Of a stretch of 64,000 nucleotides of DNA, positions 1-64,000 are shown in pieces (position 1 is the first letter of the stretch; each line of letters opens with the position of its first letter). This DNA comes from Minisyncoccota bacterium (GTDB lineage: Bacteria > Patescibacteriota > Minisyncoccia > Phycocordibacterales > UBA918): positions 4,078 through 68,077 of the forward strand of contig JALHRC010000004.1 of the NCBI GenBank assembly GCA_022841645.1, read 5' to 3'. A program made the translations under genes and the position numbers. The notes below the pieces were generated by a model. It was given only the letters and a program-made list of their open reading frames with translations, was not told the origin of the DNA and made no database searches.

Positions 1-2
1 GG

Positions 3-98
3 GTGAGAAATGGGGTGGGACCCATTTCGCAAGACTCATTGAGAGTCTTTATGAGCTGGCGATATAAAGAATCCAATGAGTGGACAGAATCTGTAAGA
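3..98. repeat. Copy 1 of a ~95-nt structured repeat (cut by the window start): GTGAGAA + 7-bp hairpin + CGCAAGACTCATTGAGA ... TCCAATGAGTGGACAG ... CTGTAAGA
   Basis: Near-identical to 61513-61606. Internal 8-nt inverted repeat ACTCATTG/CAATGAGT. The 5' hairpin (AAATGGG/CCCATTT) occupies the same position as the GAAGTGAC/GTCACTTC hairpin in copy 2. Confidence 0.5.
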
Positions 99-260
99 TT
101 CGCGAGCACTTAGCGGATTTAAGCGAAGCGTAAAATCTGCTTAGTGACTCGTGTGGACAAGGCGTGCCTTAATACTAGCCGCGTCCAACGTTCTTATAAG
201 CGTAGCGAGTTAGCACCACAAGAGTATTTCCATTTTCATAGTCGTTTCACTCCTTGAAAA

Positions 261-695
261 TTGGTCAAAAAGCGGGACGATTCTGGGCTGGGTCGTAACA
301 ATGACTGCTATACTAACCTCATCATGCTCGACCACCTCACCCTCCGCGTTCCAAACATTGAAAAAACCATCACTTTTTACTCGGCCACCCTAGCCCCACT
401 TAGGTATACCCTCTCCTTCGATCAAACATTTGATGGTGTCCGCGTGGTTGGTTTTGGTAAGGATGGAAAAGTTGATACCTGGTTTACCACCGACACTCCT
501 GTAAGTGCACACTGCCATATTGCCTTTAAAGCAGACTCACCTGACGCCGTTGACACGTTTTACAAAGCTGCGCTAGCAGCCGGTGGCAAGGATAACGGTG
601 CACCTGGACTACGACCGGAATATCACGAGAGGTATTATGGTGCTTTTATTTTTGACCCCGACGGTCACAATATTGAAGCCGTGTACGGAAACTAG
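261..695 (+). CDS. VOC-family (glyoxalase/bleomycin-resistance fold) protein; the true start may be the internal Met near 324
   Basis: 144-aa ORF with a VOC-like beta-alpha-beta-beta-beta pattern (HLTLRVPNIEKTITFY ... GAFIFDPDGHNIEAV). Confidence 0.55.
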   Translation: MVKKRDDSGLGRNNDCYTNLIMLDHLTLRVPNIEKTITFYSATLAPLRYTLSFDQTFDGVRVVGFGKDGKVDTWFTTDTPVSAHCHIAFKADSPDAVDTFYKAALAAGGKDNGAPGLRPEYHERYYGAFIFDPDGHNIEAVYGN

Positions 696-13557: not shown

Positions 13558-13854
13558 TTAAAGAAGGGTGGTGGGACTTTCGTTCGTTCCTAGACGATCT
13601 TTAATGGCCGACAGTATCTCTTCTCGGCGGAGTAGTATTTCGCTCCGGAGCGCCGCCGGTGCTTTTATATAAATAGCTCGAGTGGATGGGGTGTACGCGA
13701 AATACTCGACCCGAACCGGAAAGGGTACCAGTTCCTCCACTACCCGGCAGACCTCTTTTTCTACTGATTTCTGTGGTGGTTTAAGGAGTGTCGCATATTT
13801 AGAGAATAGCGAGCTTACCTTCATGAGCTCCCCTCGTCGCTTGGCCATGATCAC
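13558..13854 (-). CDS. DUF721/DciA-like small protein; its start overlaps the dnaN stop by 4 nt
   Basis: 98 aa. The pattern VCRVVEEL..VRVEY.AYTPSTRAIYIKAPAALRSEILLRREEIL resembles the DUF721 family commonly found beside dnaN/recF. Confidence 0.4.
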   Translation of the reverse strand: MIMAKRRGELMKVSSLFSKYATLLKPPQKSVEKEVCRVVEELVPFPVRVEYFAYTPSTRAIYIKAPAALRSEILLRREEILSAIKDRLGTNESPTTLL

Positions 13855-14945
13855 TTATTCATCGGCATTACCAAATATCGCAGTGAGCTATCGCTGCCGC
13901 CGCTCATAACCAGTGGTCGACCAATACCAGCAAATTTCATCGTTAGACTTTCATCGGACATGTGCGGTAATGGCTCTACTACGTATTGCTGATTAAAATT
14001 GAGTCGTAGTTCTTCACCTGTCACTTGGGCTTTTAGAGTATCGGTAGTGTGTCCCACATCATTGTTGGTAGCTGAGACAGTGAGGTGCCCTTCGGTAATC
14101 GTAACGGTTACTTGGAGGAATTTATTGAGAAACACGTTCGTCTTTTTGAGAGCTTTCTGAAGATCATCCTTAAGTACCACCACCGTCGTAACATATTCTT
14201 TCGGAATAATCTGCTCATAATCAGGAAACGACCCCGTAACGAGACGTGACGTGATATAGACTCCAGAACTGAAAGCGAGGCTACACTGGTTTTCGGTAAT
14301 TAGGAGCGTTGGTGAGCCTCCTACGAGCTCACAAACCCGTGCGAGTTCAAGAGCGTTGCGGTGAGGCACTAAAAACGAATGATCAAGTGCAACGCCTTTT
14401 TGGGGAACGGTTTTTTCCATCAAACGAAATGAGTCGGTCGCCACAAACGTGAGTGAATGCTCACGTTTTTGCTGTACAAACACGCTCCCCAGCTCTGGCT
14501 TTATTGATGTGTGTGAAGCCGCGAGCGCTACTGTCTTGATACCAAACGCAAACATCTCAGCATTTACCACTACCCCCGTGCTCGTCACTCGCGCAATCGT
14601 GGGAAATTCGTCGTGGGGAATAGCTTTGATTGAAGTTTCTGTGTGAGCCCCTTCGATAGTCACCACTCCCTCATCTACTCGCAATACCACTTCTCCAGTG
14701 GCCAAAAACTGTACCGTCTGAAGGAGGGTCTGCGCCGGCACCGCTACCACCCCCACTTCCTCAACCTTTCCCTCAAGAATAATTTCGACACTAATCTCGA
14801 GGTTGGTGGCACGAAGAATAATTTGGTCCTTCGTTACTTCTATCAGCACACACTGCAGTACGGGCAGCGTGACGTGTTTGGTACTTATGCGACTAACGAT
14901 CTCGAGTGCGCTTAGCAGTTTCTGGTGGGGAGTAGTTATTTTCAT
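13851..14945 (-). CDS. dnaN: DNA polymerase III beta sliding clamp
   Basis: Three-domain beta-clamp length. Begins MKITTPHQKLLSAL at the internal Met; the ORF track runs to 14990. Adjacent to dnaA. Confidence 0.85.
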   Translation of the reverse strand: MKITTPHQKLLSALEIVSRISTKHVTLPVLQCVLIEVTKDQIILRATNLEISVEIILEGKVEEVGVVAVPAQTLLQTVQFLATGEVVLRVDEGVVTIEGAHTETSIKAIPHDEFPTIARVTSTGVVVNAEMFAFGIKTVALAASHTSIKPELGSVFVQQKREHSLTFVATDSFRLMEKTVPQKGVALDHSFLVPHRNALELARVCELVGGSPTLLITENQCSLAFSSGVYITSRLVTGSFPDYEQIIPKEYVTTVVVLKDDLQKALKKTNVFLNKFLQVTVTITEGHLTVSATNNDVGHTTDTLKAQVTGEELRLNFNQQYVVEPLPHMSDESLTMKFAGIGRPLVMSGGSDSSLRYLVMPMNK

Positions 14946-15228
14946 TATCAACATTTTACTCCTTATTATTAGTGCTGTGGAAGTGTGCACAACTGAAATC
15001 CATGTTGTACTTCAAGGATCTTTTTTTGGGTCATTCTTGTGTGTAATAGGTAACAGGGTGTGTTTAGCTGGGGACGGTGTTGTTTATAAGTGGAATGGAT
15101 TATTCCGTGGGGAAAAACTGCCTGGTTATACTCCTCCCTTAAGTTACTGTACGTGGTTTTGTGGGGTGCTTATCGGGTGGCTTACACAACGTTTTCCCCA
15201 GTGTTTTTGACAGTCTCGTCGCGCTGAT

Positions 15229-15264
15229 AAAAACAAAACCCTCTCTTTTGAGAGGGTTTTGTTT
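15229..15264 (-). terminator. Intrinsic terminator downstream of dnaA; the hairpin overlaps the dnaA stop codon
   Basis: AAAACAAAACCCTCTC-TTTTG-AGAGGGTTTTGTTT. Confidence 0.6.
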
Positions 15265-16648
15265 ATTTGAGTAGAAGACGAATTTGGGTGATCTCTTCTT
15301 CTAATTCGGGGTTGTCCTTGATTTCTCCCTTTATTTTTTCGCAGGAGTGGATGACAGTGGTGTGATCGCGTCCGCCCAGCTTCTTGCCGATGGCGGGATA
15401 GGATACTTGGAAGTCCTCGCGCAGGATGTACATAATGATCTGTCGGGGGCGGACGACTTCCTTGCGGCGGGTCTTTTCGTAAATACTAGCCTGATCAATG
15501 TCGTAATAGCGGGCTACCTTATCGACAACGTCTGAAATAGCCAAGGTTTTTCGTGGTCGGGAGTTGTTTTTAATGATCGACTTTACTTCATCAAGGGCGA
15601 GCGTGCGGCCAAGCAGCTGAGTCTGACACATGATGGTGTTGAGAGCTCCTTCAAGTTCGCGAATGTTTCCTTCAATCGTGTGAGCGAGGTGCTCAACCAC
15701 GTCATCAGATAAGGTAATACTGTTTTGGGCCGCCTTGGCACGCAAAATTGCTACCCGTGACTCGGGATCGGGACTCGGAATGTCAACAATCATTCCTTGG
15801 ACAAAACGTGACCGCACGCGCTCCTCGAGGCCTTGGAGCAAAGCGGGGTGTTGATCGCTTGAAAAAACGATCTGCTTATTGGTGTCGTGGAGTGTGTTGA
15901 AGAGGTGAAAGAGTTCCTCTTGCGTCTTTTCTTTGGTAGCCAAAAACTGCACGTCGTCCATGATAAGTACATCGTACTGACGGTATTTATCCTTAAAACT
16001 ATTGGCAGTACCACTCTGCAGCGAGTTCATATAATCAACCGCAAAGCGCTCGCTCGTAACGTAGAAGACCTTTTTCCCGGTCTTTTTGATTTGGTTCCCT
16101 ACCGCTTGAATCAGGTGAGTTTTGCCGTGACCGGTCTTGCCATAAATAAAGAGCGGGTTGTAGGCAATACCAGGGCGTTCGGTAACTGTTTTGGCAGCAG
16201 CGTGTGCTAGGGCATTGTACGGCCCTACGACAAAGGTTTCAAAGGAGTAGCGGGGGTTTAGATTGTCGCTTTTATTGATGTAGTACTCCTCAAGGGGCAG
16301 CGCAGCATTAACAGTTTGGGTTTTAGAACCCTCGTGTTTGCGTTCTGAGCGCTGTACCACAGCGTATTCAACGCTACGTACAAAGGGGGAGAGATCACGC
16401 AGTGTCTTAAGGATCATGGAATGAAACTTATCCGACAGCCAATCGCGCACAAACACACTCGGTACTCCTACCGTCACGGTGCTGTCTTCGATAGTAACGA
16501 TGTGTGTGTCACGGAACCACGTCTTAAAGTTGGCCGGAGTGATGGCGAGTTCAATCTTTACGAGCGCATCATCCCATAACTTCTTAACATCAATATGTTC
16601 AGTGCGAACAATGCTACTAGTAGGAGTGGGATGAGAAAGTGGATTCAT
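15263..16648 (-). CDS. dnaA: Chromosomal replication initiator DnaA
   Basis: AAA+ Walker A GKTGHGKTHL, Walker B VLIMDDVQFL, C-terminal DNA-binding helix (GGRDHTTVIH). Confidence 0.95.
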   Translation of the reverse strand: MNPLSHPTPTSSIVRTEHIDVKKLWDDALVKIELAITPANFKTWFRDTHIVTIEDSTVTVGVPSVFVRDWLSDKFHSMILKTLRDLSPFVRSVEYAVVQRSERKHEGSKTQTVNAALPLEEYYINKSDNLNPRYSFETFVVGPYNALAHAAAKTVTERPGIAYNPLFIYGKTGHGKTHLIQAVGNQIKKTGKKVFYVTSERFAVDYMNSLQSGTANSFKDKYRQYDVLIMDDVQFLATKEKTQEELFHLFNTLHDTNKQIVFSSDQHPALLQGLEERVRSRFVQGMIVDIPSPDPESRVAILRAKAAQNSITLSDDVVEHLAHTIEGNIRELEGALNTIMCQTQLLGRTLALDEVKSIIKNNSRPRKTLAISDVVDKVARYYDIDQASIYEKTRRKEVVRPRQIIMYILREDFQVSYPAIGKKLGGRDHTTVIHSCEKIKGEIKDNPELEEEITQIRLLLK

Positions 16649-49442: not shown

Positions 49443-50455
49443 GAGTTAGGACACCACCACTTTAAATACTGTCCATCATACCACTTCGCTGCGCCACCTC
49501 CCGCGCACTGCGATAGCCCAGGATCTTCCTGGGCTTTTCGTTTATTAAGTGGACCGCCAGGTCCACCGCTGCCTGAGTCACCGTACTGAAGTCGGTCCCC
49601 TTGGGAAAGTAGCGTCTCAGCATCTTGTTGGCATTCTCCACCCCACCTTTCTGCCACGAGGCATAGGGATGACAGAAGAAGGCAGGTATACCAACGCGCG
49701 CATGGTCACGATTTTCAATACCGTTATCTCTCGTGATGGAACGAGCCTTGAGGGTGCTCGTGAGGGTCACTTCAACGGCCGCGTGCTCGGCTGGTTTCAT
49801 ACTTCTGACTTTCTTCGCTCCGATCAGTCGACTCTTGCGTTCTGAGACGACTTTAAGGCCACCCTTAGTACCCCACCGTCCCACGATAGTGTCACTTTCA
49901 AGGTGACCGTACCGTGTGCGGTGGTTAGCCCCCTTGGAGCGCTTAGATATATCAATGCGGTGTGGGATCACTGACCGTTTGGCTTTGGGGCGATGCTTCT
50001 TCACGCGTTTTCGACCAGAATAGAGGTGAGCGCAGTACCGCTCACCTCGTGCCGTACGCAGCCACTCATAGATGGCGGTCTTGGAGACGTAGCCGGGACA
50101 CCGTCTCGGGTGTTGCTCCATGTACCCAGCAATCTCGTCAGGGTTCCAGTGGCTTTGGAGCTTAGCAATGATAAAGGCTTTGAGTGCTGGGGTGGCTTCA
50201 ATCTTGGCGTACTGGAAACGCCGCAGTCGTTTGCGTACCCGTACCTTAGCGTCGGCTTTAAGTGGCTGGTACACACCAGCCACACTGTTCTTGGTGATTT
50301 CATAGGCGATGGTGCTTTTGCCCCGTCCAAGGGCCGTCGCAATAGCGCGACGGGAATAGCCCCGCGCGTGCAAGATCCCAATTTCTAAACGTTCCGCTCG
50401 ACTCAAATCCTTGATGCCTTTCATAGTACTGCTGATTATGCAGTGTCCTAACTCA
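49443..50455. mobile_element. IS30-family insertion sequence (~1.0 kb) with short 12-bp terminal inverted repeats GAGTTAGGACAC
   Basis: IR at 49443-49454 and its reverse complement at 50444-50455. Encloses a single transposase ORF. Confidence 0.55.
49462..50424 (-). CDS. IS30-family DDE transposase
   Basis: N-terminal HTH (LSRAERLEIGILHARGYSRRAIATALGRGKSTIAYEI). Catalytic region with HLESDT and further acidic residues. 320 aa. Confidence 0.8.
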   Translation of the reverse strand: MKGIKDLSRAERLEIGILHARGYSRRAIATALGRGKSTIAYEITKNSVAGVYQPLKADAKVRVRKRLRRFQYAKIEATPALKAFIIAKLQSHWNPDEIAGYMEQHPRRCPGYVSKTAIYEWLRTARGERYCAHLYSGRKRVKKHRPKAKRSVIPHRIDISKRSKGANHRTRYGHLESDTIVGRWGTKGGLKVVSERKSRLIGAKKVRSMKPAEHAAVEVTLTSTLKARSITRDNGIENRDHARVGIPAFFCHPYASWQKGGVENANKMLRRYFPKGTDFSTVTQAAVDLAVHLINEKPRKILGYRSAREVAQRSGMMDSI

Positions 50456-56634: not shown

Positions 56635-58107
56635 CTACCCTACCTTATGCTCCCGCGCGATTTCTTTCAGCGCCGCGGCCTCTTCCTCGGCCTGTTTCTC
56701 TTTGCCGGCTTCACCAAGCGCCAAAAGTTCCGTCTCGGACATGGCAAATAACTCTATTACACGGCCTTCTAGATAGGCTTCGGTGTTTTTCCCCGGGTCT
56801 ACCAACACCTCTTCGAGCAGTGCATGCAGTGCATATCCTAACTTTCTCCCCGGCTTTTCCCCAGTAATGGCCATGATGCGATCGCCATTGATCTTCAGCA
56901 TTTTAACAGAAATAGGGTCGCGTAACGCCTCGTCCACCATCGCCTTATATTTACGGAAGCGAAATGGCTGTTCTTTGGGCCGTCCTGTACCAATACGATC
57001 GCAGACCCGCAAATTAAGGAGGCTTTCGATCTGGTCCTCCCCTACCCGCACGATAGTCCGGCGGACAGCCGCCAGGGTGATGAGATCGGGATCAGAGAAA
57101 AACATGTGCCAGCGCACCAAGTTAACCACCGTGTCGATGAGTTCTCGGGGCAATTTAAGCCGTTCCAGGATGGTTTTGGTCATGCGCGCCCCTACTACTT
57201 CGTGTCCAAAGAAGGTGTAATGCTTGTTTTTTCCGCCCGTGCGACGGGTGGCCGGCTTTCCAATATCATGAAACAGGGCCGCCAGACGCAGTTCGGTACT
57301 GAAGTCTTTATCGGCAGCGGCTTGGAGGGTGCGCAAGAGATGCTCAAAGACATCAAAGGCGTGAATACCTCCCTGTTCGCAACCAACGGCCGCCACAAAT
57401 TCTGGAATGATCTCCTCGAGGAGACCGAGCTTGTGAAGGAGAGCGATGCCGTGCATCGGGGCACTTGAATCGATAAGGCGAATGAATTCGGCTGCTACAC
57501 GCTCGATCGCGATACGAGAAATAAGCTTGCTGTTTCTAGTGATTCCAGCCATGGTGGCGCTCTCGATGACAAAGTCGAGTTCGGCAGCCAGGCGCACGGC
57601 CCGCATCATGCGCAGCGCATCTTCCCCAAAGCGTTCGTCGGGGTCCCGGACGGCCCGCAGGCGCTTTTCGTGTAGGTCGGCCATTCCTTCGTAGAGGTCG
57701 ACCATAGAACCGTCCTTAGGCCGAAAAGCGATAGCATTAATCGTAAAGTCACGACGGGCGAGGTCTTCCTCGAGACTTACGCCAAATTGGACGGCATCGG
57801 GCCGTCTAGCGTCACTGTAGCCGCTTTCAGTGCGGTACGGAGTGACTTCTACGACCGCAAGGCGCAGATCGTCTTCCTCGCCGGTCTTTACGCCTACCGT
57901 GCCGTAGTCGTTATTACAAAAACTGTCTGGAAATAAGGCTTGAATCTGGTCGGGGTGGGCACTCGTCGTATAGTCCCAGTCCTTAGGGGTTTTGCCCAAA
58001 AGAAGGTCGCGCACGCAGCCACCCACGAGGTAGGCGGTAAAACCGGCATTCTCTAGCGTCTCCCCCACGACGCGGACCGGGAGTGGGATTTTGGTTAGTG
58101 GGATCAT
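56635..58107 (-). CDS. cca: CCA-adding enzyme / poly(A) polymerase family protein with an HD domain
   Basis: N-terminal nucleotidyltransferase GGCVRD...DxD. HD motif FHDIGK. 490 aa. Confidence 0.8.
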   Translation of the reverse strand: MIPLTKIPLPVRVVGETLENAGFTAYLVGGCVRDLLLGKTPKDWDYTTSAHPDQIQALFPDSFCNNDYGTVGVKTGEEDDLRLAVVEVTPYRTESGYSDARRPDAVQFGVSLEEDLARRDFTINAIAFRPKDGSMVDLYEGMADLHEKRLRAVRDPDERFGEDALRMMRAVRLAAELDFVIESATMAGITRNSKLISRIAIERVAAEFIRLIDSSAPMHGIALLHKLGLLEEIIPEFVAAVGCEQGGIHAFDVFEHLLRTLQAAADKDFSTELRLAALFHDIGKPATRRTGGKNKHYTFFGHEVVGARMTKTILERLKLPRELIDTVVNLVRWHMFFSDPDLITLAAVRRTIVRVGEDQIESLLNLRVCDRIGTGRPKEQPFRFRKYKAMVDEALRDPISVKMLKINGDRIMAITGEKPGRKLGYALHALLEEVLVDPGKNTEAYLEGRVIELFAMSETELLALGEAGKEKQAEEEAAALKEIAREHKVG

Positions 58108-58174
58108 ATCGGGGCTATTGTAGCAGAATTGCTTTGCTTTTTGCGCGCCGCCACCGTATCATGCACAGGCAATT

Positions 58175-58246
58175 GCACCCGTGGTGAAGTGGATATCATT
58201 ACTGTCTTCGGAACAGTCGTCCCAGGTTCGAGTCCTGGCGGGTGCA
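58175..58246 (+). tRNA. tRNA-Arg (anticodon TCG), no encoded CCA
   Basis: Hand-folded cloverleaf: acceptor GCACCCG/CGGGTGC, anticodon loop CTTCGGA, T-loop TTCGAGT. 72 nt. Confidence 0.75.
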
Positions 58247-58254
58247 CAAACAGC

Positions 58255-58282
58255 CGATGCCGACACGAAAGTGTCGGCATCG
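58255..58282 (+). terminator. Hairpin (12-bp stem, GAAA loop) followed by a T-rich run after tRNA-Arg(TCG)
   Basis: CGATGCCGACAC-GAAA-GTGTCGGCATCG + TTGCTGTTT. Confidence 0.6.
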
Positions 58283-58292
58283 TTGCTGTTTG

Positions 58293-58313
58293 GCACCCGC
58301 CAGGACTCGAACC
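58293..58313 (-). repeat. Perfect inverted copy of the 3'-terminal 21 nt of tRNA-Arg(TCG)
   Basis: GCACCCGCCAGGACTCGAACC is the reverse complement of tRNA positions 58225-58245. Upstream tRNA-like structure is absent. Confidence 0.7.
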
Positions 58314-58504
58314 CCTCCACCGGGACCCAACATGTAGCGAAAGCGTAGTGGTGGTGATGGAGGGGCGGGGTCGCGACAGCGAGCCGAAATGGAGCAAAGT
58401 GAACATTTTGGCCGCTGTGGTGACCGAGTATTTCCATAGCGAAGAAATATGGTTAGTAACTCGTGACCACTGCGTTCATGATTTTTTGCTACAATCCTTG
58501 CGTC

Positions 58505-58576
58505 GCTCCCATAGTTTAATGGATAGAATGCAGGTTTCCGGTACCTGCGATCCAGGTTCGATTCCTGGTGGGAGCA
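58505..58576 (+). tRNA. tRNA-Arg (anticodon CCG), no encoded CCA
   Basis: Acceptor GCTCCCA/TGGGAGC, anticodon loop TTCCGGT, T-loop TTCGATT. 72 nt. Confidence 0.75.
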
Positions 58577-58587
58577 CAAATCGGCCC

Positions 58588-58611
58588 ACTGAAATGCGAA
58601 GGCATTTCGGT
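58588..58611 (+). terminator. Hairpin (GAAATGC-GAAG-GCATTTC) after tRNA-Arg(CCG)
   Basis: Sits in the same position as the hairpin after the first tRNA-Arg. Confidence 0.5.
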
Positions 58612-58625
58612 CGTTGTCGTTTGTA

Positions 58626-58646
58626 GCTCCCACCAGGAATCGAACC
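58626..58646 (-). repeat. Perfect inverted copy of the 3'-terminal 21 nt of tRNA-Arg(CCG)
   Basis: GCTCCCACCAGGAATCGAACC is the reverse complement of tRNA positions 58555-58575. Confidence 0.7.
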
Positions 58647-58765
58647 GAGGCGCGGCGAAGCCCGCAGGCGAAATGAAATGGAGCCGAGGAACGCGCCGAG
58701 TGGGGGTCGAGCGAGTGCGGTAGTTTATGAGCGGAGCGAAGTAAACTACCCACGAGAGTGACCGG

Positions 58766-58783
58766 TTCCTGGTGGGAGCACCA
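58766..58783 (+). repeat. Direct partial copy of the tRNA-Arg(CCG) 3' end (TTCCTGGTGGGAGCA + CCA)
   Basis: 15-nt identity with the tRNA acceptor/T-stem 3' strand, about 190 bp downstream of the tRNA and just upstream of the HAD gene. Confidence 0.6.
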
Positions 58784-58807
58784 GTTTATGATTATTTTAC
58801 GGCGTAA

Positions 58808-59404
58808 ATGACCCACCCCACTCTCTTTATCGACTTTGATGGCACCCTCTGTCATGGGCGGTTTTGGCAAAGTCTGCCGGAGGACGCATATAAAAAAGTA
58901 CAAACAGCCTTGTTTCTCGAGCGAAAGGAGGTAGTGAAGAATTGGATGCGTGGCTTGCATACAGCAGAGGCCGTTACAGAAGTGGTGGCGGAGGCAACTG
59001 GACTCTCCTATTCCCTTCTCTGGTCTATCCTCGTGCGTGACTCACAGTCGTTCACCATAGCGGAAGAATTACTAGAACTAGTTGATGAGCTTCGCCAGCA
59101 CCACCACACTGTTCTTATGACTGACAATATGGATACATTTACGCGCTTTACCGTGCCAGCACTGCATCTCGAGCAGCATTTTGATGTTATTGTGAATTCC
59201 TTTGACCAGAAGCGCTGCAAAAAAGACGAAAATGGCCAAATATTTCGTGATTTCTGCGTCGGACCACTTGAACAAGCGGTTCTAATTGACGATAGCGAAA
59301 ATGGCTGCCAACTATTTACTGAGCTAGGCGGCACTGCATACATGGTAACGAACGAAGAGCCCACGCTAGGTCACCTAAAAAACCTGTTACATAGCGTAGT
59401 ATAG
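58808..59404 (+). CDS. HAD-superfamily hydrolase
   Basis: Motif I FIDFDGTL. 198 aa. Confidence 0.6.
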   Translation: MTHPTLFIDFDGTLCHGRFWQSLPEDAYKKVQTALFLERKEVVKNWMRGLHTAEAVTEVVAEATGLSYSLLWSILVRDSQSFTIAEELLELVDELRQHHHTVLMTDNMDTFTRFTVPALHLEQHFDVIVNSFDQKRCKKDENGQIFRDFCVGPLEQAVLIDDSENGCQLFTELGGTAYMVTNEEPTLGHLKNLLHSVV

Positions 59405-59408
59405 ATAT

Positions 59409-59693
59409 ATGGAACTCTCCGAACGTTGCATTCAAACCCTAGAAAAAGAAGGTTGGCCACACATTTACGAGTGGTCTGACGCCCCTGGTACGACCTACCC
59501 CGAACACCAACATCAAGACAAAGTAGTGCTATTTATCACCGAAGGCTCGCTAGAGCTAACAATGGGTGGCCAAACCCACGAACTTCGCCCGGGAGATCGT
59601 TTAGATATTCCACCAGAGACTCCCCACCTAGCCACGGTGGGACCTGAAGGCTGCCAATATGTGGTCGGAGAGATGGTCGAAGGTGATTCGTAA
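59409..59693 (+). CDS. Small cupin-domain protein
   Basis: 94 aa. Conserved His/Glu pattern (YPEHQHQDKVVLFITEG ... GDRLDIPPETPH). Confidence 0.5.
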   Translation: MELSERCIQTLEKEGWPHIYEWSDAPGTTYPEHQHQDKVVLFITEGSLELTMGGQTHELRPGDRLDIPPETPHLATVGPEGCQYVVGEMVEGDS

Positions 59694-59792
59694 TTGATTT
59701 ATTTTAGATGGTATTGTACGGTACTGACAGTTTCAGTTCTGGCTCTGGTCCGACATGGGCCTAGTTGCACTCCAAAAAGAAGGAACTGCAAG

Positions 59793-60347
59793 ATGAAACC
59801 GACCGAAATGCTACGCAATGGCATGTGGGGTGATAAGTTTGTCATTACCTACAGCGACCCGGAGCTGCCTTCCGACGATCTCGTTAGTCTGGCGGGAGGA
59901 TCGGTCTTTCTCGCCGGCCCGACGTCACGAGAGCAGGCGATTAATGATATGTGGCGGTGTGTGGCGGTACGCCAGCTCCGCGCCGCAAGCTTTAATGGTT
60001 ACATCGTCATACCGGAACCACGAGGCCTCACCGAAGACGTTTCGGCCATCATTGCCAATCGTCCTAGGTGGGAGGGTGATCGCCTCGTCTGGGTGCAGCG
60101 AGTGCTCTTCTGGATACCGCGCTCGAAAACCCTGCCTGGTAGCAACACCAACACTGAAATCGGGATGCACCTCGGTCCCCCGGGCCAGCCGTTGCCCGAG
60201 GGGATGAGTAAACGCCTTTTTGTTGGTTGGCCGCCGGGCACGCCCGATATGGGTATTTTGAGGCATCACTGCGAGAAGAAGCGGGTGGAGGTGTTCTCGG
60301 ACTTGCAGACACTGTGCGGTGTAGTGGCGGCCAGTTTCCGACGTTGA
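59793..60347 (+). CDS. Hypothetical protein (start at the Met after an AAGGAA RBS). Weak FLAGP...IPEP pattern
   Basis: ORF track begins at 59694. Function unknown. Confidence 0.4.
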   Translation: MKPTEMLRNGMWGDKFVITYSDPELPSDDLVSLAGGSVFLAGPTSREQAINDMWRCVAVRQLRAASFNGYIVIPEPRGLTEDVSAIIANRPRWEGDRLVWVQRVLFWIPRSKTLPGSNTNTEIGMHLGPPGQPLPEGMSKRLFVGWPPGTPDMGILRHHCEKKRVEVFSDLQTLCGVVAASFRR

Positions 60348-60437
60348 TCGAAGGACCCCGGCATGGCGACATGCCGGGGCTTATCGGGGATAAAATCGAA
60401 TAGATGTCAGTGTATATAATATATACTCCTTACAATT

Positions 60438-61118
60438 ATGACTTCACGCCAGCGGTATAAGGAAGCGCAGTACGAAGAGGCAAAAAGCCTTCGTTTGCGA
60501 GGTTTTTCCTACGCTGCTATTGCTAAGATCTGTGCTATCGCGCCCTCTACCGTACACGCCTGGTTCGCAAAGGATACTTTTTCTCAAGCGGTGACCGCCA
60601 GTAACCGGAAGCGCGCCGCCAAGGAAAATAAGGTACGTATTGGCGTTATCAACCAGGCAAGAAAGAAAGAACGGGCGGTGCAGTACGCGGCAGTAGTAAA
60701 GCTGGCAGAAACTGAATACAAGCACTACCGGACTTCCCCGTTATTTATGGCGGGGCTCATGGTGTACGTGAGCGAGGGTGACACTCAGCATCCACGACTG
60801 ATTCGTATGGCAAACAGTCGTCCAGAGCTCCACCGGGTGTTCATTCGCTTCTTGCATGAGTTTATGGGGGTGGAACGCAACCAGGTGCGGTTTTGGCTGC
60901 TCCTCTACCCCGACCTTGATGAAACCACCTGTATGAAGCACTGGATTAAAAAAATTGGCGTTTCTGCCGGACAATTTTATAAAAACCAGTATATCCAGGG
61001 TCGTAGCCAGAAACGTACGTTGCATTTTGGGGTTGGCAATACTATAATCGGCAGTACTCTTTTGAAAAAGAAGCTGGTTCGCTGGATTGAATTGGCCCTC
61101 AAAGAGCTACAAAAATGA
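60438..61118 (+). CDS. HTH + possible single-motif LAGLIDADG-like domain protein
   Basis: N-terminal HTH (GFSYAAIAKICAIAPSTVHAWF). Later FMAGLMVYVSEGD...ELHRVFIRFLHEFMGVERNQV resembles the LAGLIDADG dodecapeptide plus the following ..LL..I...FG.G.I block. Ends 5 nt before tRNA-Gly. Confidence 0.3.
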   Translation: MTSRQRYKEAQYEEAKSLRLRGFSYAAIAKICAIAPSTVHAWFAKDTFSQAVTASNRKRAAKENKVRIGVINQARKKERAVQYAAVVKLAETEYKHYRTSPLFMAGLMVYVSEGDTQHPRLIRMANSRPELHRVFIRFLHEFMGVERNQVRFWLLLYPDLDETTCMKHWIKKIGVSAGQFYKNQYIQGRSQKRTLHFGVGNTIIGSTLLKKKLVRWIELALKELQK

Positions 61119-61123
61119 CGTTG

Positions 61124-61194
61124 CGGCCATGGTTAAGTGGTATAACATATCGTTGCCAACGATAGGTCGGGAGTTCGATTCTCCCTGGCCGCAC
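61124..61194 (+). tRNA. tRNA-Gly (anticodon GCC)
   Basis: Acceptor GCGGCCA/TGGCCGC, anticodon loop TTGCCAA, T-loop TTCGATT. 71 nt. Confidence 0.75.
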
Positions 61195-61241
61195 AAACGC
61201 GTTTAAATCCCTGCCCTGCGGCAGGGATTTAGCGTTTGTGA
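61195..61241 (+). terminator. Long imperfect hairpin immediately after tRNA-Gly
   Basis: CAAACGC-GTTTAAATCCCTGCC-CTGC-GGCAGGGATTTAG-CGTTTGTG. Confidence 0.5.
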
Positions 61242-61391
61242 ACCGCAGCGATGTTTCTGGCTTAACAAAAAGCCAGAAACTGCGAGGTGGGGCCGAGAAC
61301 ACTTAGTAGATTTGGAGTAAAACGAACAAATATACTTAGTGATTCGTGGCCAAGTACAAAAATGAGCGCCTCCGGGCGCCATTTTTGTTCG

Positions 61392-61437
61392 TGCGGCCAG
61401 AGCACTGCCTTTGCAGGCAGTGCGTGGAGAATCGAAC
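61392..61437 (-). repeat. Inverted copy of the tRNA-Gly 3'-terminal 21 nt, split by a 25-nt hairpin insertion (TGCGGCCAG / hairpin / GGAGAATCGAAC)
   Basis: Reverse complements match tRNA-Gly 61186-61194 and 61174-61185. Between them lies GCACTGCC-TTTGCA-GGCAGTGC. Confidence 0.55.
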
Positions 61438-61512
61438 GGCGGAGCGTTGCTAAACGCGCCTTTCCTAGCGCGTTTAGCCGCGAGCCGCGGCCGGCGTTCT
61501 TATGAGCGAAGT

Positions 61513-61606
61513 GTGAGAAGTGACTAAATGTCACTTCGCAAGACTCATTGAGAACTTTTGTGAGTTTACGAACAAAAGATCCAATGAGTGGACAGTTTCT
61601 GTAAGA
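61513..61606. repeat. Copy 2 of the ~95-nt structured repeat (see feature 3-98)
   Basis: GTGAGAA + GAAGTGAC-TAAAT-GTCACTTC + GCAAGACTCATTGAGA ... TCCAATGAGTGGACAG-TTT-CTGTAAGA. Confidence 0.5.
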
Positions 61607-61623
61607 AATTAGAAAAAGCGGGC

Positions 61624-61638
61624 CGATTCTCCCTGGCC
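61624..61638 (+). repeat. Direct partial copy of the tRNA-Gly 3' end (CGATTCTCCCTGGCC)
   Basis: 15-nt identity with tRNA-Gly 61178-61192, about 430 bp downstream of the tRNA. Confidence 0.55.
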
Positions 61639-61894
61639 ATATACAGAACAAGCACCCCTCCGGGCGCTTGTTCTGTGCCTAAGGGTAACTAGGGTAAGTT
61701 TGTCTGAGGAGGCCCTGAGCATGTTAAAATGGTAAAGACAGCTGTGGATAACTAAGTGAATAGGTGGATAAAGGACAACTGTCTTTTAAAACTATGGCTC
61801 AACATATAGAATCTTGCCCAGAGCTTTCGGTAAGTGCCGAGTCCAACGTGTTTGATTTTACTGTGCTTAGAAACTGCCACGTGGAACATTTCAC

Positions 61895-62308
61895 ATGAAA
61901 CAAGCCGATAAGCTGGGAAAGCGTAATCAAATTGGTGCCTGGGGAGAGGAGATTGCGGCCGGTGCCATTATTCGAAGAGGAATGACCATTTTGGAAACCA
62001 ACTACCTTAAAAAGTGGGGTGAAATCGATATTGTTGCACGTGAAAAGGATATTTTGCACTTTGTCGAGGTAAAAACAGTTTCATATGAAACAAAACCTCG
62101 ATTACAGTGGGCAATTTCACATGAAACCTGGCGTCCCGAGGATAATGTCCACCGGGCCAAGCTCCTCCGTCTCTCAAGGACAATCGCCACCTGGATTGCT
62201 GAGCATCGTTACACGGGAAACTGGCAGATTGATGTGGCGGTTGTGCGGCTAGTTGAAATTGAAAAATACGCAACGGTTAATTTTATTTGGAATGTGATTA
62301 TGGACTAA
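61895..62308 (+). CDS. yraN: YraN-family (UPF0102) endonuclease-like protein
   Basis: GAWGEEIAAGAIIRRGMTILETNYLKKWGEIDIVAREKDILHFVEVKT matches the YraN core. Confidence 0.6.
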   Translation: MKQADKLGKRNQIGAWGEEIAAGAIIRRGMTILETNYLKKWGEIDIVAREKDILHFVEVKTVSYETKPRLQWAISHETWRPEDNVHRAKLLRLSRTIATWIAEHRYTGNWQIDVAVVRLVEIEKYATVNFIWNVIMD

Positions 62309-62435
62309 GGTTCCATGGGAAACACCCTTAGTAGTGTTTCACGTGAAACACTGATTAAGTGTTAGTAAATGGTCTTTTTTTTATCCTTATGGTACTATCA
62401 TCGAGCTAAAAGTAATACGAAGGCAAAATATATTT

Positions 62436-62506
62436 CGGGGCGTAGCATAATGGTAGTGTACGCGGTTTGGGACCGCGTGGCCCGGGTTCGATTCCCGGCG
62501 CCCCGA
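62436..62506 (+). tRNA. tRNA-Pro (anticodon TGG)
   Basis: Acceptor CGGGGCG/CGCCCCG, anticodon stem CGCGG/CCGCG with loop TTTGGGA, T-loop TTCGATT. Confidence 0.7.
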
Positions 62507-62541
62507 CAGGCAAGGTAAAGACATAGTAACCACGTTATTCC

Positions 62542-62964
62542 ATGGCAAAAGAAGAGCATTTTGTTGGAAAGGTGGCCCAAAAAGCCCTTATTAGGCGTGG
62601 TGATGAGGTGTTAATTGTGCGTGACATTGGTGATGTAGATACGTGGGAACTGCCAGGTGGTAGGCTCAACGTGGGTGAGGACCCCAGGAGTGGTTTGGCA
62701 AGGGAAATGCGTGAAGAGTTAGGAATCGAGATAGAGGTGGGAAATGTGATTTTTCTTGAGCAGTTTATCCAGCTGCGTTCAGGTGAGCCTCACTTGGCAC
62801 TAATCTACGAAGCTGCACTGCGGAGTCCTCACGCTGATCTTTTTTTGCAACCGGATGAGGTGGCAGAGATAGCCTGGGTAAATGCAGAAAATTGGCAAGA
62901 ATATCGTTACTTTGCTGAGTACAAGCGTGCTTTAGCAAGTTATTTTGCCAAAACGACAGCGTGA
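62542..62964 (+). CDS. NUDIX hydrolase
   Basis: NUDIX box GGRLNVGEDPRSGLAREMREELGIE. Confidence 0.8.
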   Translation: MAKEEHFVGKVAQKALIRRGDEVLIVRDIGDVDTWELPGGRLNVGEDPRSGLAREMREELGIEIEVGNVIFLEQFIQLRSGEPHLALIYEAALRSPHADLFLQPDEVAEIAWVNAENWQEYRYFAEYKRALASYFAKTTA

Positions 62965-63569
62965 AAAAACAAGTATTTTACATCCACGGTGGGGAAGCCT
63001 TCTCAAACTACGAGGCATTTTTAGCGTCTTTGCGCACCAAACCAGTGCGTGACCTGCCCGGGCAGGAGCGTACCTCAATCTGGACTGATACGCTGCGGGC
63101 TGACCTGGGTGACGACTTTGAGGTGTTTATGCCATCGATGCCGAATAAACAAAACTCAAAGTATCTTGAGTGGAAGCTTTGGTTTGAGCGCTATTTTCCC
63201 CATCTGCGCGACGGAGTACACCTCGTCGGCTGGTCGCAAGGAGGCTATTTTCTGGCCAAGTACCTCACCGAGGAAACCCCGCCGTGGCGGATTGGCACGC
63301 TTATTCTCATTGCTGCCCCCATTGGCCCGGATGAGTTTGGTGGGGAAGACGGCGGAGACTTTAATTTTGACGTCACAAAACTTTCGCTTTTGGCAGAAAA
63401 GGCTGAAAATATAGCTTTATTTCACTCTACGGATGACCCTGTCGTCCCTTTTTCTCATGCCGAGCGCTATAAAGAGGCATTGCCACTGGCTCACCTGGTC
63501 CGCTTCTCGGATAAAGGACACTTCATAGTGGAGACCTTGCCAGAATTAATTGAACAGTTGCGCGGGTAG
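62961..63569 (+). CDS. RBBP9/YdeN-like alpha/beta serine hydrolase
   Basis: Nucleophile elbow GWSQGG. 202 aa. 4-nt overlap with the NUDIX gene. Confidence 0.6.
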   Translation: MKKQVFYIHGGEAFSNYEAFLASLRTKPVRDLPGQERTSIWTDTLRADLGDDFEVFMPSMPNKQNSKYLEWKLWFERYFPHLRDGVHLVGWSQGGYFLAKYLTEETPPWRIGTLILIAAPIGPDEFGGEDGGDFNFDVTKLSLLAEKAENIALFHSTDDPVVPFSHAERYKEALPLAHLVRFSDKGHFIVETLPELIEQLRG

Positions 63570-63675
63570 GGAGGTGGGGCGCCGGCTGCTCTTCCGGCGG
63601 CCTCCCGCCACCAGGGCGGGCATCCCCGCGTAAGAAGTCGGTATTTTGAGCGTCTACGTATATAATGGTGTCCAC

Positions 63676-64000
63676 ATGGCGGGTCCTAATAAGACAACAC
63701 GGCAGGTGGAGGACCAGGAAGTTCGCTTCACTGCCGCCTTCGACGAGTATAGTGACGCTTTGTTTCGTCACGCTTCTTTACGTATCGGCAGCCGCGAGCA
63801 AGCCATTGATCTTGTTCATGACGCGTTCGCCAAAGTCTGGACCTATGTCCGCTCGGGACACGAGGTCGACAATTTTCGCCCCTTTTTATATAAAGTGCTC
63901 AATAACTTGATCATCGACGAGTATCGTAAGTCGCGCGAGGTATCACTCGACGCGCTCTTGGAGAAAGACGGCGTTGATGAAGGAGATTTTGAGGGACTGT
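63676..64000 (+). CDS. ECF-type sigma-70 family sigma factor, 5'-partial (runs off the window end)
   Basis: Region 2 motifs (FDEYSDALFRHA...DLVHDAFAKVW; FRPFLYKVLNNLIIDEYRK). A TATAAT lies at 63661. Confidence 0.6.
   Translation, partial: MAGPNKTTRQVEDQEVRFTAAFDEYSDALFRHASLRIGSREQAIDLVHDAFAKVWTYVRSGHEVDNFRPFLYKVLNNLIIDEYRKSREVSLDALLEKDGVDEGDFEGL

Follow-up and report, generated by a model that had tools for sequence, protein, structure and literature searches.

The RtT repeats of Escherichia coli have been known since the late 1970s, and they are the described system that comes closest to the elements reported here, non-coding modules behind transfer RNA (tRNA) genes in a stretch of 64,000 nucleotides (nt) from a Minisyncoccota bacterium (Patescibacteria; contig JALHRC010000004.1, positions 4,078 to 68,077 of the forward strand; hereafter the window, in whose coordinates positions are given). 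In the genome sequence of E. coli MG1655, which we checked, the two tRNA-Tyr genes (tyrT and tyrV) are followed by units of 178 nt, and each unit carries a direct 19-nt copy of the tRNA-Tyr 3' end including CCA (AATCCTTCCCCCACCACCA) and, about 85 nt upstream of this copy, an inverted segment (GGGGAAGGAT). The consensus structure of RtT (Rfam RF00391) is closed by a helix between the inverted segment and the copied T-stem, and the acceptor 3' strand together with CCA forms a tail. The annotated E. coli small RNA (sRNA) RttR ends on the last base of the copy, 178 nt past the tRNA end. A passage of PMC3318445, citing Bosl and Kersten (1991), presents RttR as one repeat unit of the tyrT operon, and its function is called unclear both there and in a more recent source (bioRxiv 10.1101/2024.07.17.603846), which still lists the way it acts as unknown.

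In the window, the genes for tRNA-Arg(TCG), tRNA-Arg(CCG) and tRNA-Gly(GCC) are each followed by an inverted copy of their own 3' end, and the latter two also by a direct copy further downstream (Table 1). We find that the inverted copies are part of larger units that consist of a hairpin (R), the inverted copy (X'), a structured core and, in some cases, the direct copy (X), and that the inverted 21-mers are the X' segments, that is, the 5' strand of the helix that closes such a module. The reading that we favor, at a probability of roughly 0.55, is that these are RtT-like RNA modules of tRNA trailers, which terminate in a 3' strand resembling that of a tRNA and have become dispersed over different tRNA genes. 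The copies themselves, first noticed in an initial annotation made by eye, are real: a repeat finder returned two inverted pairs of 21 nt with 100% complementarity (arms 58225-58245/58293-58313 and 58555-58575/58626-58646), and the tRNA-Gly copy is split into 61392-61400, which lies inside a 14-nt arm (61387-61400), and 61426-61437, with a 25-nt hairpin (61401-61425) in between. Both direct 15-nt copies were recovered as well, at 58766-58783 as TTCCTGGTGGGAGCA followed by CCA, which reads as a displaced or duplicated end of tRNA-Arg(CCG), and at 61624-61638, 100% identical to 61176-61190 of tRNA-Gly. ARAGORN and Rfam call four tRNA genes, all on the plus strand and none on the minus strand, in agreement with the earlier view that the inverted copies are not minus-strand tRNA genes; they place the start of tRNA-Gly at 61123, one position before the 61124 first given. 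The fourth gene, tRNA-Pro(TGG), has neither an inverted nor a direct copy of its own 3' end. After each of the four genes follow A-CAAA, a hairpin and TTTG, and the hairpins between tRNA and inverted copy, which had been annotated with T-rich tails at the two Arg genes, are present and terminator-like by score, but their T tails are interrupted. A second, independent assembly (SRR28154530) is identical to the window over 58100-58540, and the copies are therefore not the product of mis-assembly. A look-up with the CCA-adding enzyme for near-identical strains, which could have contrasted filled with empty sites, returned solely the identical sequence.

For comparison, 80 loci were retrieved from metagenome-assembled genomes (MAGs) of related Patescibacteria, labelled Kaiserbacteria, Paceibacteria or Parcubacteria, by means of the gene for the CCA-adding enzyme (56635-58107; 59-80% amino-acid identity), and the synteny of tRNA-Arg, tRNA-Gly and tRNA-Pro is kept across them. 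The last 30 nt of each tRNA were searched for in its flanks, counting direct copies of at least 11 nt and inverted copies of at least 9 nt within 450 nt. Such own-end copies lie downstream of 96 of the 196 tRNAs with enough flank and upstream of 10 of 206, with no direct copy among these 10, and this asymmetry means that the copies are not due to chance. Module features were found in 48 of 74 genomes and at 40 of 66 orthologous tRNA-Arg(TCG) loci, with tRNAs for Arg, Gly, Pro and Ala as hosts. The downstream regions of the relatives have a common layout, in which the tRNA is followed by hairpin R (about 40 nt), X', a structured core (80-190 nt), X and a further hairpin. X' is complementary to the 3' part of the tRNA, from T54 to about position 72, and in nearly every case ends at the complement of T54 (...NTCGAA), at a length of 8-22 nt; both Arg X' of the window reach 2 nt beyond it (positions 52-72). 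In many relatives, as in tRNA-Gly of the window, X' is split by a small conserved hairpin at the boundary of acceptor and T-stem. X is a direct copy of tRNA positions from about 54-56 to 73, to which CCA is occasionally appended. The match is specific for the host: among 97 cases, X' agrees at no fewer than 6 of the 8 variable positions with its cognate tRNA in 50 and with a non-cognate tRNA in 10. The direct copies enclose 130-450 nt of non-coding DNA without open reading frames (ORFs), and no copy was found at a distance of over 700 nt from the tRNA it repeats. A shared mechanism had been suspected in the initial annotation from the three window cases, and one layout indeed recurs across the relatives, at orthologous loci as well as at other tRNAs, so that the check for generality suggested there came out positive. 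The supposed constant length of exactly 21 nt has to be given up, since the window Arg cases represent the long end of the range, and the 21-mer, earlier seen as an anti-tRNA site on its own at a set distance, forms one side, the 5' one, of a helix within a larger module; the idea of an invertible DNA module found no support.

The cores belong to at least three families, which we term types A, B and C. Profile searches with nhmmer, seeded from a few copies and run over 1.24 Mb, gave 146 core matches, of which 126 are on the same strand as a tRNA and at most 1.5 kb downstream of it, 2 are on the opposite strand and 18 are elsewhere; the counts for type B are unreliable, as its model drifted into type A because a variant of type A (termed A') is nested in the type B core. 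Types B and C are multi-branched, and type A is a three-way junction in which P1 is formed by X' with X, the long P2 has a bulged A and a loop of the GAGC-GNA-GCGAA type, the short P3 has a GUA loop, and the joiners (U)CGAAR and GUACUG are conserved. In 32 copies of type A, RNAalifold identified compensatory changes in 20 of 23 pairs. When all three helices are taken into account, 92.2% of the cells in these copies are paired and 25 of 29 pairs show changes on both sides; none of 500 shuffles reached the observed values, and slid controls were only 32-52% paired. The X'/X closing helix (helix 1) is 86.8% paired, with covariation in 5 of 6 pairs, and 28 of the 32 copies have a U.G pair at the base of P3. 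A covariance model derived from this alignment (model R1) detects 72 copies. The type C alignment, which includes the cores of the window modules E1, E2 and E3a (58314-58468, 58647-58765 and 61241-61351), has compensatory changes in 19 of 26 pairs and retains a G.U pair in 15 of 16 copies. Wobble pairs favor the tRNA-sense strand as the folded one, with G.U to A.C counts of 36:6 in type A and 15:5 in type C, and the tRNA-Gly module is predicted to fold better on the plus strand than on the minus strand (-122.9 versus -113.1 kcal/mol). The mismatches between X' and X, with 29 G.U, 17 A.C and 91 others, give no clear preference for a strand. The orientation of the modules follows their own tRNA even where neighboring tRNAs lie on opposite strands, and it is thus tied to the gene and not to the direction of replication. 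The covariance models of Rfam 15 matched only tRNAs, and no known self-cleaving ribozyme or group I intron, in window positions 57000-64000 and in six related loci. A hammerhead-like core, considered on account of the UGAG..CGAA motif, was rejected, as this motif is a hairpin loop with tandem G.A pairs whose flanks pair together, and there is no three-stem hammerhead core.

Several observations bear on how the modules vary and spread. Tandem units occur in related loci (L018, L022 and L028), and units can also be nested, such as the A' module within the type B core behind tRNA-Gly. For some cores the closest relatives are near-identical cores at other tRNAs of the same genome (Pro and Arg in L028; Pro, Arg and Gly in L051), with X', P3 and X fitted to each host tRNA. 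The modules of tRNA-Arg(TCG) in the window and of tRNA-Gly(TCC) in locus L063 have the inner hairpin GCCGACACGAAAGTGTCGGC and a GTTG..TTTG tail in common, and hairpin R is therefore assigned to the module; the X' segments of these two are wholly different, each being a perfect match to its own tRNA. The variant A' has the order GUGAG, local hairpin, GCAAG, P2, GGACAG, P3, looks like a circular permutation of type A, and is found directly behind protein-coding genes, co-oriented with them, as well as nested in B and C cores. At the edge of the window there is a further array in which model R1 matches an A' module at 24-108 (E = 3e-14) and which finishes in the tRNA-3'-end-like sequence GATTCTGGGCTGGGTCGTA; its host tRNA presumably lies just outside the window. 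Two loci of relatives contain further tRNA-derived sequence. At L055:3075-3260 (minus strand), a truncated tRNA-Gly pseudogene with a shortened anticodon loop has an A' module in its T-loop and adjoins the upstream side of an intact tRNA-Gly(TCC). At L008:385-1262 (minus strand), a tRNA-Arg with its hairpin is separated from an older module array by about 450 nt, in which the opposite strand has a possible small ORF, and two degenerate tRNA-3'-end-like repeats are present as well; this arrangement suggests that gene-sized insertions land there too.

Table 1. tRNA genes and module parts identified in the window.
Feature	Position	Strand	Basis and remarks
tRNA-Arg(TCG)	58175-58246/7	+	ARAGORN, Rfam (59.9 bits); 58225-58245 is inverted-repeat arm 1; no encoded CCA
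Hairpin R1 (CAAACAGC..GCTGTTTG)	58247-58292	+	Inner stem-loop 58255-58282 with GAAA loop; terminator-like, part of module
X'1, perfect antisense of tRNA-Arg(TCG) positions 52-72	58293-58313	+	Inverted repeat I1
Type C core of module E1, ending in CTCGTGACC, no X after it	58314-58468	+	nhmmer 58340-58469; consensus structure; fold z = -13
tRNA-Arg(CCG)	58505-58576/7	+	ARAGORN, Rfam; no encoded CCA
Hairpin R2	58577-58625	+	Inner stem-loop 58588-58611; 3' half homologous to that of R1
X'2, perfect antisense of tRNA-Arg(CCG) positions 52-72	58626-58646	+	Inverted repeat I2
Type C core of module E2	58647-58765	+	nhmmer 58689-58763; in type C alignment; predicted 16-bp X'/X closing helix
X2, direct copy of last 15 nt of tRNA-Arg(CCG) plus CCA	58766-58783	+	Repeats D1, I6
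tRNA-Gly(GCC)	61123-61193/4	+	ARAGORN, Rfam; no encoded CCA
Hairpin R3	61194-61240	+	Short enclosing helix CACAAACG/CGTTTGTG takes in last 3 nt of tRNA-Gly; repeat I22
Type C core of module E3a	61241-61351	+	nhmmer 61242-61351, E = 3e-23; X' limited to short helix, no X
Terminator-like hairpin ahead of second tRNA-Gly module	61352-61391	+	Scored hairpin 61366-61379
Split X'3: anti-acceptor, conserved hairpin, anti-T-arm	61392-61400, 61401-61425, 61426-61437	+	Repeats I13, I18; fold
Type B core of module E3b	61438-61623	+	nhmmer 61434-61613, E = 4e-40
Type A' three-hairpin module nested in type B core	61540-61610	+	Covariance model R1, E = 8e-12
X3, direct 15-nt copy of tRNA-Gly positions 56-70	61624-61638	+	Repeat D18, 100%
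Hairpin following X3	61643-61676	+	Repeat I10
tRNA-Pro(TGG)	62436-62506	+	ARAGORN, Rfam; no encoded CCA
Further module array at window edge (A' nested in type C core, then type B core)	1-296	+	nhmmer

The resemblance to RtT is one of architecture. Both kinds of unit lie directly 3' of a tRNA gene and on its strand (126 versus 2 core matches in our set), both occur in tandem, and a unit that ends in a copy of the host tRNA 3' end is seen in the window in E2, there with CCA, and in E3b, but not in E1 and E3a. In both, an upstream inverted segment (GGGGAAGG in RtT) pairs with the 3' strand of the copied T-stem and thereby closes the RNA, as predicted for the modules by the folds and by the covariation of type A. 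However, the modules of the Patescibacteria have at least three unrelated cores and a hairpin between tRNA and X', their X' may span the whole stretch 54-72 including the T-loop and is often split by a small hairpin, they occur with many host tRNAs (Arg, Gly, Pro and Ala), with nesting and with variants behind protein genes, and some have no X. Homology searches were negative: RF00391 had no match at E <= 1 in window positions 57000-64000 and none at the gathering score in six related loci, and model R1 had no match in the E. coli RtT locus (MG1655 1286709-1287236). The RtT units at this locus (L104) contain a mini-hairpin motif, GAGCGAAGCGAGA, which is almost the same as the loop GAGCGNAGCGAA found at the tip of hairpins in the cores of types A, B and C of the Patescibacteria, either by shared ancestry or by convergence.

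How the modules may be transcribed, processed and copied, and thus what role they may have, we infer as follows. In the tRNA-sense single strand, X' could pair forward with X, which would close the core, or backward across R with the real tRNA 3' end. Transcription past R would, by analogy with RttR, yield an RNA that terminates, within a helix, in the 3' strand of a tRNA acceptor, and the enzymes that trim and finish tRNA 3' ends, possibly with RNase P on the 5' side, could then release and stabilize the module RNA. The modules would have been copied from one tRNA gene to another, X' and X being adapted to the new host each time, and the direct repeats would let arrays grow and shrink via recombination. 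Candidate routes of copying are recombination at a folded single-stranded site, which would fit the order of the parts, palindrome-perfecting template switching beside R, and gene conversion of cores between arrays. Several points weigh against our interpretation. X' and core come after terminator-like hairpins, and a promoter belonging to the modules was not found, so that their transcription would require read-through. Among the four modules of the window, E1 and E3a have no X, nor do the type C modules common at tRNA-Arg of the relatives, and a tRNA-like 3' end can therefore account for only part of the picture. Homology to RtT was not detected, and the parallel may be one of convergence; the wobble bias and the covariation fit folded single-stranded DNA as well as RNA; and the re-matching of X' to a new tRNA is not explained by an RtT-like trailer RNA.

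We also considered a more far-reaching option, namely that the modules are mobile structured nucleic-acid elements of a new class, which copy themselves behind tRNA genes, use the stretch from the T-loop to the 3' end both as target and as template, and re-make X' and X for each host. They might be catalytic three-way-junction RNAs or elements that fold as single-stranded DNA, and A and A' might be circularly permuted forms. This is a real, although tentative, possibility, and if it were true, a 'tRNA-tail hitchhiker' strategy would be widespread, and the RtT repeats of E. coli would either be an isolated and degenerate relative or have converged on it. The RtT precedent, however, leads us to regard the modules as a variant of a known and poorly understood design and not as something categorically new. 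Unlikely, in our view, is a related explanation in which the modules are miniature mobile elements acting at the level of DNA: the folded tRNA-sense strand would rebuild a double-stranded att site from T-loop to 3' end, and a recombinase provided in trans would exchange one strand with the tRNA gene, as in integron attC and CTX-phi/Xer recombination. Such single-strand exchange of a folded hairpin predicts the order tRNA with new 3' end, R, X', loop, X as the old 3' end, which is the order observed. It also agrees with the existence of arrays, tandem units and nested units, with R and cores common to different tRNAs, with A and A' as apparent permutations of one three-helix junction, and with a displaced X that carries a CCA absent from the working tRNA gene, for example at 58781-58783 (CCA is kept in the displaced copy of 4 of the 32 CCA-less tRNA genes having one; 34 such cases in all). 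The loops furthermore contain C-GNA-G mini-hairpins, and such hairpins are very stable in DNA. Like attC and the CTX-phi attP, the modules are imperfect palindromes with strand-specific folding, in which structure rather than sequence is conserved, and they form arrays that grow at one fixed site in the order new end, cargo, inverted box, loop, old end. In contrast to integrons and CTX-phi, their boxes are T-loop sequences (GANTCGAA/TTCGANTC) without R''/R' (RYYYAAC/GTTRRRY), their 'cargo' is merely a hairpin, there is no dif site, and many junction and loop nucleotides are highly conserved, as in a functional RNA. The repeated tRNA ends bracket no element-sized cargo, the A' copies behind protein genes are in positions resembling 3' untranslated regions, and an imported 3' end would break a different tRNA upon transfer, whereas all host tRNAs are intact. 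Pfam scans of 29 window ORFs (about half of the total, some of them without a Pfam match) revealed no integron integrase or other recombinase, no HUH or other transposase, no TnpB and no reverse transcriptase. In viral contigs, two pattern scans gave 21 loci, none with a real module or an associated tRNA; these matches are all due to chance, and a phage origin was rejected.

That X' exists as a pairing partner for the 3' end of the actual tRNA within the primary transcript, giving a long duplex that is cut by RNase III or competes with tRNA folding, and hence a means of processing or quality control of read-through transcripts, we consider improbable as a general explanation. In both Arg cases of the window, tRNA 3' end, R and X' are predicted to form a near-perfect hairpin of about 45 bp in a read-through transcript (z of -9.5 and -13), so a role in RNase III cleavage or processing is possible for these two cases. 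Among the relatives, a helix joins the tRNA end with its flank to the segment that precedes the core, and it persists where no more than the last 3-6 tRNA nt take part. In most orthologues, however, this helix barely touches the tRNA, and sequestering of the tRNA can therefore not be the conserved function; X' pairs equally well with the downstream X, and the conserved cores, the direct copies, the arrays and the A' modules behind protein genes would all be left unexplained. For integrases that target tRNA genes, the classic identity block is a direct repeat covering the T-loop through the 3' end, and the direct repeats found here have just this extent, with a working tRNA restored at the left junction as in tRNA islands of the T-loop class (tyrosine integrases). 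The modules might thus be ordinary attL/attR scars of the insertion of islands or prophages, with the inverted copies as by-products of palindrome-perfecting template switching at the adjacent hairpin, and the palindromes that run seamlessly from R into the tRNA as well as the gene content between tRNA-Arg and tRNA-Gly, which varies from about 40 nt to 8.7 kb among the relatives, could be taken in this sense. We nevertheless hold this to be very improbable, and the initial annotation had likewise argued that simple attL/attR formation is no explanation: the short intervals between the repeats are not decayed islands but conserved, covarying structured families that contain an inverted copy of the same site, no integrase was found nearby in the 29 ORFs scanned, and X' has its inner boundary fixed at T54, contrary to what random template switching would give. 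REP/BIME and MITE elements are likewise small, structured, multi-copy and non-coding, sit at gene 3' ends, spread within genomes and are sometimes nested; the modules differ from them in being strictly co-oriented with the upstream gene, overwhelmingly at tRNA 3' ends, and flanked by copies of the host tRNA, and no RAYT-type transposase was seen. For a guide-RNA function, with core and X as an omega-RNA-like scaffold and guide, no nuclease gene was seen. Split or intron-containing tRNAs were rejected on the basis of ARAGORN and Rfam, and a long inverted tRNA-Arg copy in one relative (L013:1-162), which extends through the anticodon arm and off the contig end, is most likely a fold-back assembly artefact and not a convergent tRNA. 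The tRNA introns published for Patescibacteria are group I introns in the anticodon loop and a separate matter (PMC13011429).

The neighborhood of the tRNA genes shows some further features. The region between tRNA-Arg and tRNA-Gly (58784-61122 in the window; L001-L080 in the comparison) is a variable hotspot, about 40 nt to 8.7 kb long among the relatives, and in the window it encodes a HAD hydrolase, a cupin, an ORF of no known kind and an ORF with a helix-turn-helix (HTH). The last of these, a 226-aa ORF at 60438-61118 (plus strand), stops 5 nt ahead of tRNA-Gly and has an N-terminal HTH (weak Pfam matches to Terminase_5 and HTH_23) and, by eye, a stretch reminiscent of LAGLIDADG (FMAGLMVYVSEGD), so that it is possibly a stand-alone gene of the homing-endonuclease kind next to a tRNA. 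The palindrome GTTTCACATGAAAC is clustered at 61888-62349 with five distinct sites (1-2 mismatches), in and around a UPF0102 (YraN-like) gene located between the tRNA-Gly array and tRNA-Pro, and the whole window has 8 matches where 0.39 are expected; similar motifs occur near the tRNA loci of relatives (L017, L053 and L070), and it may be a regulator-binding site. An extended -10 element (TGCTACAAT) is present on the plus strand upstream of tRNA-Arg(CCG) and on the minus strand upstream of the gene for the CCA-adding enzyme (58484-58495 and 58117-58128), which explains one inverted repeat of the region (I23). Further away, a 320-aa ORF at 49462-50424 (minus strand) carries an HTH_38 domain, which is known from the N-terminal part of IS30-type transposases; no catalytic domain was detected at E <= 1e-4. 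The genes dnaN and dnaA are located at 13851-16648, the GC-skew minimum is near 13-15 kb, and the cumulative skew rises after about 15 kb; the replication origin therefore probably lies within the window, and the tRNA genes at 58-62 kb would be co-oriented with replication.

In conclusion, the Patescibacteria analyzed here have a lineage-wide set of structured families linked to the 3' ends of tRNAs, which seems to have gone undescribed; an earlier account of such modules was not found in the literature on Patescibacteria, no RNA database describes them, and their cores represent three candidate families of structured non-coding elements. These are ultra-small bacteria with little spare DNA, and yet about half of the sampled tRNA genes trail 130-600 nt of conserved, covarying non-coding structure. 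In practice, assemblies are broken at tRNA genes by the module repeats, which can also pass for scars of integration. The match to the design of RtT suggests that a copy of the tRNA 3' end combined with its antisense is a general route of attachment of RNAs or elements to tRNA genes, perhaps one that borrows the tRNA-processing enzymes, and the many diverged copies of the modules now provide comparative data of a kind that was never available for RtT.

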